Source of the DNA: Promethearchaeia archaeon
GTDB lineage: Archaea; Asgardarchaeota; Lokiarchaeia; Sigyniarchaeales; SOKP01
Direction of reading: 5' to 3'
NCBI GenBank assembly: GCA_029856045.1
Contig: JAHQWG010000012.1
Location: 128,001-192,000 of the forward strand
Length of the DNA: 64,000 nt
The notes below the pieces were generated by a model. It ran no database searches and was not told the DNA's origin. It saw only the letters and a program-made list of their open reading frames with translations. Below are positions 1 through 13,613 of this stretch, piece by piece (positions within the stretch are counted from its first letter, which is position 1; each line of letters begins with the position of its first letter). The position numbers and the translations under genes were made by a program.

Positions 1-14
1 GGTGGTGATTAGAA

Positions 15-293
15 ATTAAAATAGTCACAGTAAATATACCAGAACCGTATATAAACGCCATTGATAAATTAACAGGGCATGAAGGTTTATATCCATCAAG
101 GTCCGAACTTATCCGGGTCGCTGTACGGGATTTTTTGCTTAAGGAACTCAGAATGGCAAGCAATCTTTCTCTTTATCAAAAAAGAACGCCTGAAGAAAAA
201 TTTGATCATGAAAATTTTGTTAGAGTTCCAGCTACCGATGTTGACTATGGGGGAGATAGAAATTTTAAAACCTTTAGGATTGTGAGAAAATAA
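15..293 (+). CDS. Ribbon-helix-helix (CopG/Arc/MetJ-type) regulator, probable ATT start; not in ORF track
   Basis: Manual translation: (M)KIVTVNIPEPYINAIDKLTGHEGLYPSRSELIRVAVRDFLLKE...FRIVRK*. RHH signature (N-terminal beta strand, YPSRSELIRxAVRD). In-frame TGA at 6-8; GGTGA at 4-8, 6 nt before ATT at 15. Confidence 0.85.
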   Translation: MKIVTVNIPEPYINAIDKLTGHEGLYPSRSELIRVAVRDFLLKELRMASNLSLYQKRTPEEKFDHENFVRVPATDVDYGGDRNFKTFRIVRK

Positions 294-7054: not shown

Positions 7055-10000
7055 TTGAGAAATCCCGCTAATTCAGATAATGTTGATGATGATCTTGTAA
7101 AGCAAATTTTTAAGATAATCAATATGGGGAAGGAACTTATTGAATTGGATAAATTCAATGATGGTATTGACTGTTATAATAAAGCCATAGGTATATTGAA
7201 ACAGATGCCTGGTTATGAAAATGAAGTTCAAAAAACTGAAAAATTAATTGAAGAAGCATATACTAAATATGATCAGGTTTTTCCGAAAAGTGAACAAGAG
7301 GGTGAAGAAATAGATAGAACTCAGTTAAAAAAAGAAAAGTTAGCAGATTTTACAAAGAAGAAAGAAGAAATAGAAGAAAAAAGTAAATTAGCTTATGATT
7401 ATTTGGGAAAAGGGTCAGATTTTGCCCAATCCAATCAATTTGATAAAGCTCTTGAGAAATATACACAAGCAAAAAATATTTTTCAGGAGATAGGTTGGAC
7501 CTCGGAAGTTCCTAAGGTTGAGCTGCTAATAAAGGAATTGAATGAAAAGAAAAATAAATTTCTAAAAATACAGGAAGAAAAACAAAAAATAATTGAAAAA
7601 AAGAAAAAAATAACAAAAAAAGAACAAGAAATTATTTCACAACATGGAGAATTTCTCCAGAAATCTGAAAATGCAAAAGAAACTAAATTAAAGACTTACC
7701 AACAAAAAAAGCAAAAAGAAAAAGACCTAAGTGCAGAAGCTTATGATCTGTTGGGTGAAGCTTCAGAGCTAATCCAATCCAATGAATTTGAGAAAGCGCT
7801 TGAAAATTATAATCAAGCAAAAAAATTATTTAATGAGATCAATTGGCAAAGTGAAATTTCTAAGATTCAACAATTTATAAAGGATTTGGAGGAAAAACAG
7901 AAGAAATTCATGATATTACAGCAAGAACTATTGAAAAAACAAGATATAAGTAAAGAAATAACTGAAAAAGATCAAGAATTTTTATTAAAACAACAAGAAT
8001 TAAAAAAGTATATCGAAGATATAAAAGAAACTAAAGTAAAAGCATATCAACAAAAAAAGCAAAAAGAAAAAGACCTAAGTATAGAAGCATATGATATGTT
8101 GGGAGAAGCTTCAGAACTTGAAGAAGAAAATCAATTCGATGAAGCTCTGGAGAATTATTTACTTGCAACCGAAATTTTTAAAGAAATAGGATGGCATTCA
8201 GAAGTTCCTAAGATTCAAGAATTGATGAAAAACTTAAAAATTAAGAAGAATAAATATTTAGAATTGCTTCAAAAAGAGAAGGAAATGCAAACACAGTTGC
8301 AAATTGAACAAAGTAAATTAAAAGAATTTGAATTAATCAAACAAGAATCTCTTCAAAAAGAGTCTATTCAAAAGGAAGAAAAAATAAAAAGAATGGAGCA
8401 ACAAAAGAAAGAACAGAGAAGAATTGAAAAAGAAATTCAAGATAAAGTAAATTATGTAGGTAAATTAGTAAGAGATTATGAGAAATCTTTAAAAAAAGGA
8501 AAGTTTGATCAACAAAATCCATACGAGGAGATTATTTCTATTTATGAAGGAATAATAGAAATCCTTAAGGAAACCGGTTGGACTGATCAAATTAATCCAT
8601 ATAAAGAAACTATTAAACATTACGAGGAAAAACTAGCTCGTGACGGAAAATTAAGAGAGATTGAACGCCAAAAGCAAGAAGAAGAATTGATATCTACAAT
8701 ACCTGTTGAAGATCAAATTGAAACTCAAGTTTTAACTGATAAAAGAAAGAAATTAGAGCAAAAAAAGAAAGAACAGAAAAGAATTGAAAAAGAAATTCAA
8801 GATAGAATAAATTATGCAGAACAATTAGAGAGAGAGTATGATTTAGTATTAAAAAAGAAAGATTTTTCTCAAAAAGCTCCATATAATGAAATAATTATGA
8901 TTTATGAAGATATAATAAAGATTCTTAAGGAAGTAGAATGGATGGATCAAATTAAACCTTACAGGGGAACAATTAAGCATTATGAGGAAAAATCAGCTCA
9001 TGATTTAAAATTAAGAGAGTTAGAACGCCAAAAACAAGAAATAGATGAGTTCGTAATTACTCCTTTGGTGGATGACTCAAAAAGTCAAAAGATTACAGAT
9101 AAAAGAGTTGAATTGGAACAAAAGAAGCTTAAACAACAACAGATTGAAAATGAAATCCAAGATAGAGTAAATTATGCAGAATCGTTAGAGAGAGAATATG
9201 AGTTGGTATTGAAAAAAAAAGATTTCTCTTTAGAATCTCCATTTGATGAAATAATTATAATTTATGAAGAACTAATTGAAATTCTTAAAAATGCAGGATG
9301 GACTGATCAAATCAAACCATATTCAGAAACAATAAAACATTATGAGGAAAAATCCGTTCGTGACACCAGATTAAGAGAGTTTGAACGCCAAAAGCAAGAG
9401 AAAGAAATGATCCCAATAGCAGTTGATGAAGATGGAGCTAAAACTCAAGAACTGTTAGATAAACAAATGGAATTAGAGATAAAAAAGAAAAAACAAGAAC
9501 GTATTGAGGAGGAAATACAAAAAAAAGTCAATTATGCAGAATCTTTAGCAAGAGAATATGAATTAGCACTTAGAAAAAAAGATTTTTCAAAGGTTTGTCC
9601 CTATGAAAATATAATTGAGATTTATAAAGAAATAATTGAGATTCTCAAGGAAACTGGATGGACAGATCAAATTAAACTTTATACAGAAACCATTAAACAT
9701 TATGAACAAAAATTAGAACACGATAAAAAATTTAGAGAATTTGAACGGCAAAAACTTGAGAAGGTTGAAATCGAATATTTTCCCCCTCAAGAATCTTTAA
9801 AAGATTCGGTTGCAACAGATCTAAGGATGATTAAACATGAAAAAAAGAAAAAGGAAGAAATTCAAGTTCAAAAAGAGATAGATGATATGATTAATATTGC
9901 AGAAAATATGGCAAGAGAATATGAAAAGAAATTGAGGTATAAAGATTTTTCAAAACCTTGTCCCTATGAAGAAATAATTAAAATTTATAGAAAGGCTAAA

Positions 10001-11743
10001 AACAAATTACAATCTGTCGAATGGAATGATCAAGCAGAATCTCTAATAGCGACAATTACCCATTATAAAAATAAATTAGAGAAAGATATTAAATTTCGTG
10101 AGTTAGAAAAAATTAAAGAATTAAAAAAGGAAAAAGAAAAATTAGAATTTCAAAAATTAACAGAGGAGCAAAGAGATCTAAAAGAAAGAGAATTGGATTT
10201 AAAGAGGAAAACTCTCTATGAAACTGAAGAAAGGGAAAAATTAATCGAACAATTACAAGAAAAAGCATTTCAATTAATGGATCAAGCAAAATCTAAATTA
10301 AGGAATAAGAAGTTTGATGAATCTATTGAATTATATGGGAAGAGTAAAGATATTTTCGAAGAAATTGAATATAAAGAAGGAATAATTTTAACAACAAATA
10401 CTATTCTTTCACTTAAAAAGGAAAGAGACACTTATTTTCAAAGATTGGAGAAAGCTGAAGAAATTGAAGCAATCAAACTTGTTGAAGAAAGAGAAATGGA
10501 ACAAAAATATAGAGAGACACTTGAAAAAGAAAAAGAAAAACGTAAAGAGAGATTATCAGAACTTGCTGTTAAAAAGAAGGAAGAAAAAAGAAAGGCTGAA
10601 AAGGCGTTTAGTTTAATCGATAAAGCTTCCAATTCAATTTTAAAAGAAAAATTTGATAAGGGATATGAACAGTATATGGAAGCACGTCAAATTTTTATGG
10701 AATTGGGGTGGAAACAAGAAGTTACAAAGATTGATCAAGACAATTTATTTTACCTAAAAAAGAAAATGAGAGAAGTTGAAGAGAGAAAAGAAAGACTTAA
10801 ACAGATAAGTGGAGAAAAGAAAAAAATGGAAGAATTAATGTCTGAATCTGAAAAAATACAATCTGAATTAGAGAAAAGTTCTGCAGCAAAGTTACGAAGC
10901 AAATATTTAGAAAAAGAGAAGGAAAAAATAAAACTTATAAGTAAAGAAGCAAAATCTTATCAAGCTTTGGATGAAGCAAATGAATTAATTGATAAGAAAA
11001 AGTTCAACTCTGCTGTAAGAATACTCAAAAAAGTTTATTCTGAATTTATTAATTCAGGTTGGAAAAAAGAAGCTCAAAAAATTAAACTTAAAATTGATAA
11101 AATCACAAATCAAAGCTTAATTCCGATAATTCAAGAGGAAAAAACTGAAAAAAAAGAATATTTTAAAGAAATAGATAGGGCTTATAATTTATTAGATGAA
11201 GCTGAAAGAGCAAGCCAACGAAAAAAATTTATGCGTGTTGTTTCAGTATTAGTAGAAGTAGAAGAAATTTTTGAAGACATCCAATGGGTTAATGCTTTAA
11301 AAATTATTAAGGAACAAATTGAAATAAATAAGATTAATGTTAAAGAAAAAAGAAAAAAAAGAGAAATTGAAGAAACTGGAGATATTATTGAAGGAAAAGT
11401 AGATTCTGAAACAGCATTTAATTATATGAATAAATGTAAAATGGCAGAGAGAAGAAATAATTTTTCAAGAGCGATCCAATTTGCTGAAAAGGCTCATCTT
11501 ATTTTTAAAGAATTAGGAAAGGATTGGGAAAGAGAAGCAAACAGAATAGAGCAATATATAGGTCAATTACAAACAGCACAGAAAGAGAGAAAAATAAAGA
11601 TTGATAGAGTAAAGACAGAAAAAACAAAAAAATTAGAAACGGAAAAAATAAAAGAACAAGATATTAAAGAGAGATTAGAAGAAAGAAGAAAACGGAGAGA
11701 TGATTTAAGAAAAAGACTTCAGGAAAGAAAAAATAAAAAATAA
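7055..11743 (+). CDS. Giant helical-repeat (TPR/MIT-like bundles) plus charged coiled-coil/SAH protein
   Basis: 1562 aa. Repeated 'AYDLL..A.....FDKALE.Y..A..IF.EIGW..E' units separated by E/K/Q-rich helices. Confidence 0.75.
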   Translation: MRNPANSDNVDDDLVKQIFKIINMGKELIELDKFNDGIDCYNKAIGILKQMPGYENEVQKTEKLIEEAYTKYDQVFPKSEQEGEEIDRTQLKKEKLADFTKKKEEIEEKSKLAYDYLGKGSDFAQSNQFDKALEKYTQAKNIFQEIGWTSEVPKVELLIKELNEKKNKFLKIQEEKQKIIEKKKKITKKEQEIISQHGEFLQKSENAKETKLKTYQQKKQKEKDLSAEAYDLLGEASELIQSNEFEKALENYNQAKKLFNEINWQSEISKIQQFIKDLEEKQKKFMILQQELLKKQDISKEITEKDQEFLLKQQELKKYIEDIKETKVKAYQQKKQKEKDLSIEAYDMLGEASELEEENQFDEALENYLLATEIFKEIGWHSEVPKIQELMKNLKIKKNKYLELLQKEKEMQTQLQIEQSKLKEFELIKQESLQKESIQKEEKIKRMEQQKKEQRRIEKEIQDKVNYVGKLVRDYEKSLKKGKFDQQNPYEEIISIYEGIIEILKETGWTDQINPYKETIKHYEEKLARDGKLREIERQKQEEELISTIPVEDQIETQVLTDKRKKLEQKKKEQKRIEKEIQDRINYAEQLEREYDLVLKKKDFSQKAPYNEIIMIYEDIIKILKEVEWMDQIKPYRGTIKHYEEKSAHDLKLRELERQKQEIDEFVITPLVDDSKSQKITDKRVELEQKKLKQQQIENEIQDRVNYAESLEREYELVLKKKDFSLESPFDEIIIIYEELIEILKNAGWTDQIKPYSETIKHYEEKSVRDTRLREFERQKQEKEMIPIAVDEDGAKTQELLDKQMELEIKKKKQERIEEEIQKKVNYAESLAREYELALRKKDFSKVCPYENIIEIYKEIIEILKETGWTDQIKLYTETIKHYEQKLEHDKKFREFERQKLEKVEIEYFPPQESLKDSVATDLRMIKHEKKKKEEIQVQKEIDDMINIAENMAREYEKKLRYKDFSKPCPYEEIIKIYRKAKNKLQSVEWNDQAESLIATITHYKNKLEKDIKFRELEKIKELKKEKEKLEFQKLTEEQRDLKERELDLKRKTLYETEEREKLIEQLQEKAFQLMDQAKSKLRNKKFDESIELYGKSKDIFEEIEYKEGIILTTNTILSLKKERDTYFQRLEKAEEIEAIKLVEEREMEQKYRETLEKEKEKRKERLSELAVKKKEEKRKAEKAFSLIDKASNSILKEKFDKGYEQYMEARQIFMELGWKQEVTKIDQDNLFYLKKKMREVEERKERLKQISGEKKKMEELMSESEKIQSELEKSSAAKLRSKYLEKEKEKIKLISKEAKSYQALDEANELIDKKKFNSAVRILKKVYSEFINSGWKKEAQKIKLKIDKITNQSLIPIIQEEKTEKKEYFKEIDRAYNLLDEAERASQRKKFMRVVSVLVEVEEIFEDIQWVNALKIIKEQIEINKINVKEKRKKREIEETGDIIEGKVDSETAFNYMNKCKMAERRNNFSRAIQFAEKAHLIFKELGKDWEREANRIEQYIGQLQTAQKERKIKIDRVKTEKTKKLETEKIKEQDIKERLEERRKRRDDLRKRLQERKNKK
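7333..8376 (+). repeat. Three intragenic 348-nt (116-aa) repeats
   Basis: gcttatgat at 7391 and 7739; aactaaa...caaaaaaagcaaaaagaaaaagacctaagt at 7681 and 8029. Boundaries approximate. Confidence 0.8.
8401..10140 (+). repeat. Five intragenic ~360-nt (120-aa) repeats
   Basis: Lines starting 8401, 8761, 9121 and 9481 align in register (attga...aa...caa...aattatg); the fifth copy near 9841 is shifted by 3 nt. Confidence 0.85.
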
Positions 11744-11948
11744 AAGAGTGAAACATAGATAAAATGATTTTAACTTTTTTGCAGTAATTAATTTCAAAAA
11801 AATGAAATAAAAACGAGACAAAATTTCATAAATTTTTGTCGGCAATAAAAACTCATTAATTTTGGGGATATTTTTGGACTGTGGTCAATTTCCACTGCAA
11901 AATTAAAATAAGAGAAAAATATAATAAAAAATAAAAAGGTGAAAAATA

Positions 11949-12140
11949 ATTCAACTCTCTTCTGTTTGCTTACCTGAAAAATATTTAGAAATATTGGAAG
12001 TTTTTGTCACTGAAGGTCGATTTCCAAATAGATCAGAAGCTATTCGTGTGGCAATTCGAGATTTAATTAAAAAAGAATATTTATTAGAAGAAATATATAA
12101 AAAATCCCAGCTCCAATACCAGAATAGCCAGAAAAATTAA
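11949..12140 (+). CDS. Ribbon-helix-helix regulator, probable ATT start; not in ORF track
   Basis: (M)QLSSVCLPEKYLEILEVFVTEGRFPNRSEAIRVAIRDLIKKEY...KN*. Classic G.FPNRSEAIR.AIRDL RHH motif. In-frame TGA at 11940-11942; GGTGA at 11938-11942, 6 nt before ATT at 11949. Confidence 0.85.
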   Translation: MQLSSVCLPEKYLEILEVFVTEGRFPNRSEAIRVAIRDLIKKEYLLEEIYKKSQLQYQNSQKN

Positions 12141-12282
12141 AATCTTTTTTATTTCTTAATTAAATTGTTCATTTCTTAGAATTTTAGATCTCTAGAAAAA
12201 TAGTAAATTTGAAATTTTTCAGAAAACTTATATGTTACATATTATATGTATAGTACACATAACAAATAAAATGATACTAAAT

Positions 12283-12603
12283 ATGGCGGATATTAAAATG
12301 CAACTCAAAGATCATCTAAAAAGCGCCGAAGATTGGGGGAAAATGGAGACTCCAATTCCAGGAGTTTATGTAGTGAAAGTGCCTGCTACAAAAACACGCC
12401 CTGCTCTTCTATTTTTAGAGATAAATCCAATAAAAGACGATGGCAAACCAATAAAACGTAAGGGGCTTTTTATTGGAAATTTTGAAAATCTTTTACTCTT
12501 CTCAGAAGCACTTGCAGATGATAAAGTTGTTCAGCTTATAAGAACTCTTGAAGACATAAACCCGAAAGCTCAAACACAAATGAAAAAGTTAAAAATGGAT
12601 TAA
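12283..12603 (+). CDS. Hypothetical protein
   Basis: Coding-like ORF (MADIKMQL...), followed by a T-tract. ATG at 12283 preferred. Confidence 0.65.
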   Translation: MADIKMQLKDHLKSAEDWGKMETPIPGVYVVKVPATKTRPALLFLEINPIKDDGKPIKRKGLFIGNFENLLLFSEALADDKVVQLIRTLEDINPKAQTQMKKLKMD

Positions 12604-12630
12604 TTTTTTTTTTTTATTTTTATTTTTATA
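12604..12630 (+). terminator. Poly-T archaeal terminator candidate
   Basis: Long T tract immediately after the stop at 12603. Confidence 0.45.
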
Positions 12631-12770
12631 TTAAATTCTAAGAAAAAAAAATATTGGGATGCAATTAATTGGAAATAATTAAAAATCTTATATTTTTTTT
12701 ATATCTTAAGACTCATTTATTTATATTATTATAAAATTTTCAAACTAAAATAAAAAAAATATGATTTAGA

Positions 12771-13037
12771 ATGGAAGATAAATGTGATGAGTGTGATGGT
12801 GCTATCTTTAGAATCGTAAATGATAGTATTCTAAAGCGAAGGTACAACTTTGTAACCGATACTAATTTGAAGATGTGTGAAGATTGTGGCGCGAAATATA
12901 TTACATGTAAAAATTGTGGTGCGCTATTAACTCGAGTACATCTTTCATTAGATGTATATGGTGTTAGGAGTAAATGCCGATCATGTGGTACTGAAGATCC
13001 AGAAGTTGCAGCATGGATTAAAAGGGGGGGCGGGTAA
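12771..13037 (+). CDS. Small double zinc-ribbon protein
   Basis: Four CxxC pairs (CDEC, CEDC, CKNC, CRSC) in 88 aa. Confidence 0.75.
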   Translation: MEDKCDECDGAIFRIVNDSILKRRYNFVTDTNLKMCEDCGAKYITCKNCGALLTRVHLSLDVYGVRSKCRSCGTEDPEVAAWIKRGGG

Positions 13038-13163
13038 AAAAAGTTTTTCACTTTTTTATTCTTATTTTTTTAAAAATAGAATAATCTTGATAATTAAAAA
13101 TTAATAAATGATTAAAGAGATATTTTCTATATATCTTTATAAATATTATTTAGGTATCATATT

Positions 13164-13613
13164 ATGGACGTTCGTATTCGAGTCGGAACTCCTGATGATA
13201 GAGCGACATTAAAAAAGTTTGTTAATCAACTGGTTGCTGATTTAGGAGAAGATTTTGATGAAAAGAGATTTGATTGGGGCATATTACGTAGATTATATGA
13301 TCCATTGCAAAGGCATGGCATCTTCATAGCAGAAAATGAAGAAAATGGTGAACCAGCCGGAATGATCGTTGCTGAATTGAGAGTTGATCCCTATGGTTTA
13401 AGTGAAGGATATATAAAGTTAGTTTTTGTAAGTCCAGAGTATAGAGAAAAAGGAGTTGGAGAAAATTTGCTACAAGAGGCTCTAAATCATCTAAAGAAAA
13501 TCAAAGTTCAAAGAGTTAAGATAAATCTTAAAGAAGAAGCGATAAAAGCAGCTAAACTATATGAAAAATATAAATTTAAAAAGAAATACGAAGTACTGGA
13601 ATTAAAATTCTGA
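13164..13613 (+). CDS. GNAT family N-acetyltransferase
   Basis: 'FVSPEYREKGVG' acetyl-CoA-binding motif A; 'A.KLYEKYKF'. Confidence 0.9.
   Translation: MDVRIRVGTPDDRATLKKFVNQLVADLGEDFDEKRFDWGILRRLYDPLQRHGIFIAENEENGEPAGMIVAELRVDPYGLSEGYIKLVFVSPEYREKGVGENLLQEALNHLKKIKVQRVKINLKEEAIKAAKLYEKYKFKKKYEVLELKF

Follow-up and report, generated by a model that had tools for sequence, protein, structure and literature searches.

The question raised by this locus is where translation begins in a small gene whose reading frame has no canonical start codon ahead of the conserved N-terminus of its product. The window, by which we mean the whole 64,000-nucleotide stretch of DNA that was analysed, belongs to contig G000:C15 of a genome of 3.34 Mb and 29% GC, whose relatives are labelled as Promethearchaeota (Asgard) MAGs. 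A sequence-only reading of it had proposed a hidden ribbon-helix-helix (RHH) gene that starts at ATT behind a Shine-Dalgarno (SD) motif, the TGA of which is an in-frame stop. From position 11937 onward the sequence runs AGGTGA, AAAATA, ATT (11949), CAA CTC TCT TCT GTT TGC TTA CCT, and the layout as it had been read (AGGTGA AAAATA ATT CAA CTC, with the TGA in frame) is exact. The features of the locus are as follows.

11937..11942, + strand: AGGTGA Shine-Dalgarno site, complementary to the 16S 3' end
11940..11942, + strand: in-frame TGA within the SD, closing the upstream frame (from the sequence and the arithmetic of N6)
11949..11951, + strand: ATT, proposed initiation codon (aligned with the ATG of orthologues; N6 spacing)
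11949..12140, + strand: RHH gene, 63 codons plus TAA stop at 12138-12140 (Pfam RHH_1, AF2 model)
11994..11996, + strand: TTG, false start of the gene callers, giving the 48-residue form (TTA in two same-genus orthologues)

The SD core ends 6 nt before the ATT (N6), and no canonical start lies in frame between the TGA and the conserved N-terminus; the earliest in-frame ATG, GTG or TTG is TTG 11994, 15 codons past ATT 11949. The TGA falls in frame because the spacer is N6, which by arithmetic is true of any codon placed at N6 behind GGTGA. Within the window the GGTGA-N6-ATT pattern occurred 4 times against 2.4 expected, a number reached in 23 of 100 shuffles and thus not above chance. The locus was contained in 20 DNA runs from salt-marsh and marine sediment, and the sequencing-run search listed no RNA runs containing it.

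Translated from stop to stop (P0001), the frame matched Pfam RHH_1 (PF01402), a profile of the CopG/Arc/MetJ superfamily, over residues 7-43, with an E-value of 2.8e-6 and 27.5 bits against a cut-off of 20.5. In an AF2 model computed with 30 orthologues (mean pLDDT 89.9), residues 1-9 were extended and residues 10-21 and 28-62 formed helices; the model is that of a monomer, and the RHH strand as such forms only in the dimer. The nearest solved structures were the RHH domains of NikR, ParD and CopG, at weak Foldseek E-values. By these matches the protein is classed as an RHH protein of the NikR-N-terminal/CdrS-like subfamily, conserved across Promethearchaeota (Asgard), and its family resemblance suggests a probable role as a small, dimeric regulator of transcription. 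Both the RHH_1 match (residues 7-43) and the AF2 model place the ribbon strand and half of helix 1 in codons 5' of TTG 11994, which bears out the earlier statement that a start at this TTG, 15 codons in, would delete the DNA-binding strand.

Orthologues of the RHH gene were present in all 40 relatives searched. The surrounding gene order (window 7055-13613) is conserved family-wide and consists of a 1562-residue TPR/coiled-coil repeat protein, the RHH gene, a 106-residue protein, an 88-residue zinc ribbon and a GNAT acetyltransferase; the downstream 106-residue ORF had no Pfam or NCBIfam family match. In public gene calls the RHH gene exists only as the 48-residue form begun at TTG (P0005), which is stored with an initial L, and an exact look-up of the M-started 48- and 63-residue forms returned no match. 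One relative is public as a 44-residue form (P0082), and the relatives that start with ATG are called at full length, 59-60 residues.

We then considered how the proposed start is conserved. The string AAGGTGA-AAAATA-ATT-CAA-CTC is identical in this genome (G000) and in three other species of the same genus (G001, G002 and G004). The fifth member of the genus, G003, carries ATG at the exact position of the ATT codon, behind a weaker and more distant AGTGA (N9). ATG is also the aligned codon in most of the 30 + 80 related loci. Most other genera read ATG AAA TTA ATx TCx (MKLISVNLP...) at the aligned start, and among the 80 wider loci the aligned codon was ATG in 43, TTG in 11 and GTG in 8. Three paralogues within G000 likewise begin with M or V at the residue aligned to the ATT. 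Over codons 2-16, G000 and G003 differ by 7 synonymous and 0 non-synonymous changes (pS 0.68, pN 0), a pattern that indicates purifying selection on the 15 N-terminal codons, those lying before the TTG.

These observations bear directly on a start at TTG 11994, or decay of the gene, either of which would leave 48 residues and no DNA-binding strand. TTG can legitimately serve as a start codon, and gene callers do produce the corresponding products, P0005 here and P0082 in the relative. However, the codon is replaced by TTA in two of the four ATT-bearing species (G002 and G004), no SD precedes it, the 15 codons upstream change only synonymously relative to G003, the reading frame is unbroken in all four species, and the resulting product would lack the ribbon and half of helix 1. 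We regard this account as highly improbable. Sequencing error and decay, which had been called unlikely from the letters alone, are excluded by the presence of ATT in four independent assemblies, the intact frame and the purifying selection on the N-terminus. Taken together, conservation, frame, synonymous-only change and SD distance make error, decay and the TTG start excluded or very unlikely, and translation of the RHH gene most likely starts at AUU 11949. The hidden gene is thus real, missed or truncated by gene callers, with ATT as its only usable start. In evolutionary terms, an ancestral ATG would have changed to ATT in the common ancestor of the four species of this genus, and a rearranged leader would have accompanied the change, setting a strong SD at the optimal distance.

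The 3' end of the 16S rRNA in this genome is ...GGATCACCTCCT, to which AGGTGA is complementary. Genome-wide, the commonest distance of GGTGA from the ATG of a long ORF downstream is 6-7 nt, and the ATT therefore stands at the optimal SD distance; an SD 5-mer precedes 7% of the ATG starts in this genome. Further upstream lies one additional feature.

11886..11912, + strand: conserved upstream block CAATTTCCACTGCAAA, then an A/T-rich TATA-like stretch ATTAAAATAAG; proposed promoter, possible operator

The block (11886-11901) is kept throughout the genus: all five species have it, among them G003 with its ATG start, whose intergenic sequence otherwise diverges. The TATA-like stretch keeps a distance of about 43 nt to the start codon, whether this is ATT or ATG. 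The arrangement is consistent with a promoter role for 11886-11912 and with a transcript start near 11930-11934; the block would be a candidate operator for autoregulation. The conserved block and the TATA-like stretch together suggest a short, SD-bearing leader, perhaps with an operator.

An alternative is a start at ATA 11946, or a leaderless transcript beginning at or near the ATT and driven by a second A/T-rich box (11917-11929). Among the near-cognate codons that this genome uses is ATA, and the second box does form an A/T-rich, TATA-like stretch about 26 nt upstream of the ATT. But ATA 11946 lies only 3 nt from the SD, while near-cognate starts in this genome peak sharply at N6 (see below), and the ATG of G003 aligns with the ATT, not with the ATA. 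Against ATA 11946 the weight is carried by the genome-wide N6 peak rather than by conservation as such. A leaderless transcript would make a strictly conserved SD pointless, and of the two TATA-like stretches it is the upstream one that keeps its position between ATT- and ATG-started forms. Either variant is accordingly given only a slight chance.

For initiation at AUU 11949, we propose that pairing of the AGGUGA Shine-Dalgarno exactly 6 nt 5' of AUU would keep the 30S subunit in register, and that AUU would be decoded, with a third-base mismatch, by the ordinary initiator tRNA (anticodon CAU). The searches gave a single initiator-type tRNA, which has A1:U72, a GGG/CCC stem to its anticodon CAU, and a 37/38 intron; aragorn and Rfam searches, in a tRNA set that is incomplete, found no special initiator tRNA for ATT, ATA or ATC. 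Near-cognate decoding is the simplest inference because only this one initiator-type tRNA was found.

As to the tRNA set itself, aragorn (introns allowed) and the Rfam tRNA model each recovered only about 25 tRNA genes in a genome scored as 100% complete; it is probable that many of its tRNAs are split or rich in introns and are overlooked by standard finders.

We next asked whether the ATT start is a property of RHH regulators. It had been suggested that Asgard RHH regulators use ATT family-wide for translational control, possibly in response to the fidelity of initiation (aIF1), as non-AUG starts respond to eIF1 in eukaryotes and to IF3 in bacteria, an idea founded on a second RHH gene with the same layout 12 kb away. 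That second gene is present.

15..293, + strand: the other ATT-started RHH gene (P0002 type), preceded by a stub of its own 5' end

Its GGTGA-N6-ATT (window 4-17, ATT at 15) reads as had been described, but the GGTGA turned out to be duplication-junction sequence, GGT GGT GAT TAG. The stub begins with ATG, runs for 26 codons and lies at G000:C15:127933-128011, just ahead of window position 1. It stems from a partial tandem duplication in which about 80 bases of the P0002-type 5' end were copied; it keeps AAGGAG...ATG and reads MKIVTVNIPEPYINAIDKLTGHEGGD up to a stop codon, and the ATT of the full-length copy follows 2 nt past that stop. The two 5' copies differ at five synonymous sites and in ATG versus ATT. 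In the same genus the P0002-type orthologues are single, undisrupted genes with AAGGAG...ATG, and the 5' duplication was absent from the three same-genus genomes searched. Since the orthologues are single and ATG-started, this ATT configuration arose in this genome alone.

Several points would fit a family-wide control. A six-frame RHH_1 search of the genome gave 10 genes, two of them ATT-started; ATT or ATA recurs at the start in several genera, with no canonical alternative at L132, L141, L182 and L189, and is also found at the start of P0002-type genes in G008, G025 and G032; and aIF1 of S. solfataricus has been reported to disfavour non-canonical starts (PMC6237735). Against this, the other 8 of the 10 RHH_1 genes have ordinary starts (ATG, GTG or TTG) before the strand, one of the two genes lacking a canonical start is the duplication product exclusive to this genome, and the orthologues mostly have ATG, by the 43, 11 and 8 counts given above. 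Nor is GGTGA-N6-ATT restricted to RHH genes: the same layout stands on many unrelated ones (SDR, EtfA, GTPase, PAS kinase), and between about one quarter and one third of the SD-N6 genes are headed by ATT, ATA or ATC. Nothing, moreover, connects the RHH protein with the initiation machinery in a way that would complete a feedback loop. A family-wide control sensing initiation fidelity is, on this evidence, very unlikely.

Some RHH orthologues differ in spacing. At L129, L130, L133, L139, L142, L144, L013-L015 and L019 the SD lies 5 nt from ATA or ATT, which brings the GTG of GGTGA into frame, and public annotations of these orthologues start at that GTG (MIVIKLISV..., MEKIKLISV...). Such annotations probably add three or four spurious residues.

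The genome-wide occurrence of ATT, ATA and ATC (collectively ATH) behind an SD was assessed on ORFs of at least 80 codons that directly follow an in-frame GG-TGA and have no canonical start in their first 8 codons, with other positions from ORFs selected alike as controls. The codon at N6 after GGTGA was ATT, ATA or ATC in 16 of 23 cases. The corresponding figures were 4/20 at N0, 1/23 at N3, 7/23 at N9, 4/25 at N12 and 2/25 at N15, or 18/116 when the control positions were pooled and 11/93 without the N9 shoulder; N6 compared with the latter gave a Fisher p of 8e-8. Canonical starts at N6 after GGTGA numbered 12 ATG and 8 TTG.

When all SD 5-mers were taken at an aligned spacing of 6, the codons were ATG 64, TTG 26, GTG 2, ATT 21, ATA 17, ATC 2 and other 45. 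ATH thus made up 47% of the non-canonical codons at this spacing, against mostly 4-22% elsewhere (30% at N5), an excess of roughly 33 genes. The ORFs had median lengths of 276 codons for ATH and 295 for ATG, compared with 102 for other codons. An earlier, cruder test, in which all in-frame codons at the heads of start-less ORFs served as the reference, had yielded a weak and noisy ATT/ATA signal (ATT 1.1% and ATA 1.25% against 0.72% pooled) and nothing clear with 6-mer and 7-mer SDs; the same-ORF positional control took its place.

The genes headed by ATH include an SDR, a small GTPase, an EtfA-like protein, zinc-ribbon proteins, an acyl-CoA synthetase, a PAS protein and transporters, and starts at the first canonical codon would drop the Rossmann motif of the SDR and the P-loop of the small GTPase. 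For the EtfA-like gene, AAGGTGA-N6-ATA is kept in four species. For a GHMP-kinase-like gene the arrangement within the genus is GGTGA-N7-ATC; the aligned start elsewhere is ATG or TTG in most genera, mostly without an SD. In 1.2 Mb of G032, a closed genome from another family, N6 gave 37 canonical, 7 ATH and 20 other codons, a weaker signal; the ATH share is likewise smaller there than the quarter to a third seen here. Within the two RHH orthogroups, ATT and ATA occur at the start at a frequency of the order seen for SD-led genes generally, and because ATH heads so many SD-N6 genes, this frequency is what any SD-led family would show. The ATT start of the RHH gene is thus one case of genome-wide ATT/ATA starts behind an SD and is not RHH-specific.

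A stronger SD might have been expected to compensate for the weaker codon. SD length was equal for ATH- and ATG-started N6 genes across the genome, and a trade-off between SD and codon was seen at the RHH locus only (ATT with AGGTGA-N6 versus ATG with AGTGA-N9 in G003).

The uS10 gene (G000:C7:8425-8727, minus strand) presents a different codon behind its SD. It reads GGTGA-N7-TCG, with TCG where orthologues have ATG, GTG, TTG, ATA or ATT, and no canonical or one-mismatch start was found nearby in frame in G000. The TCG is common to G001, and two same-genus species have TTG there. Four other genera begin uS10 at ATA or ATT, three of them directly behind GGTGA.

These data are consistent with AUU, AUA and AUC being routine initiation codons of SD-led mRNAs in this Asgard lineage, at a strict 6-nt spacing, which we hold to be reasonably probable. 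For the locus as a whole, we put at about four in five the probability that it is a functional 63-residue RHH gene started at AUU 11949 and one instance of a genome-wide SD-led ATH class. Our literature search found no paper linking Lokiarchaeia or Prometheoarchaeum with non-AUG starts. In Haloferax, ribosome profiling placed about 30% of novel initiation sites at near-cognate codons, which were set aside as possible false positives (PMC7261190).

For the gene itself, the corrected start would restore the DNA-binding strand of an order-wide conserved regulator that is public only as a 48-residue truncation. The locus would also serve as a clean, phylogenetically supported example of near-cognate initiation, combining a derived ATT, a strong SD at N6 and an N-terminus under selection. 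If the wider reading is true, start-codon discrimination by aIF1/aIF2-type machinery would be SD-assisted or relaxed in close relatives of eukaryotes, and standard gene callers would systematically truncate or miss ATH-started genes. Asgard genomes, whose initiation factors are of the eukaryotic type, are widely used for reasoning on the origin of eukaryotes; were ATH starts that common, their annotation would need start models that allow ATT, ATA and ATC behind an SD, and the stringency of start selection by aIF1 in Asgard archaea would become a concrete experimental question.

Among known RHH systems, the best NCBIfam match was CdrS (NF058555, E 1e-10), a haloarchaeal cell-division regulator. 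The score, 41.4 bits, lies below the cut-off of 100 for that family, and the adjacency of cdrS and ftsZ2 has no counterpart here: FtsZ/tubulin genes were found at C27:226050 and C51:220766, away from the RHH gene and its listed paralogues. The Sulfolobales cell-cycle regulator aCcr1 is likewise an RHH protein (PMC9976878), and its model (NF053762) scored 17.6 bits against a cut-off of 60. Like the present protein, CdrS and aCcr1 are stand-alone RHH proteins of about 60 residues whose helix 2 starts with ...NRSEAIR....

The N-terminal RHH domain of NikR (PDB 2bj1, 2hza) was the best sequence match among solved structures, over residues 7-44, and the top Foldseek hit, with the motif SxxxPxxLLxxxDxxxxxxxxxNRSEAIRxxIRDxI common to both. 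Unlike NikR, the present protein ends after an extended second helix; at 63 residues it has no C-terminal nickel-binding domain, and NikR models gave 14-22 bits against cut-offs of 83-175. ParD-type antitoxins, the name that some sources give to relatives, have the same RHH fold and produced weak matches to TIGR02606 and to ParD structures in the PDB. The TIGR02606 score was 22.6 against 46.2 bits, and no ParE-like or recognisable toxin gene is adjacent; unlike that of a ParD pair, the neighbourhood of this RHH gene is chromosomal and conserved across the family.

With regard to the start codon, NCBI table 11 lists ATT, ATC and ATA as alternative initiators, and infC and pcnB of E. coli are initiated at AUU. 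The present gene resembles these two in having a near-cognate AUU behind an SD, presumably read by the normal initiator tRNA, and conserved among close relatives. The weak start of infC serves in a feedback loop, since the gene's product, IF3, itself discriminates against AUU. Here, by contrast, the gene encodes a DNA-binding RHH protein that resembles neither aIF1 nor IF3, and no such loop is evident. The host differs too: unlike the bacterial AUU genes, this one belongs to an Asgard archaeon with eukaryote-type aIF1, aIF1A and aIF2, in which ATH starts would be common rather than exceptional.
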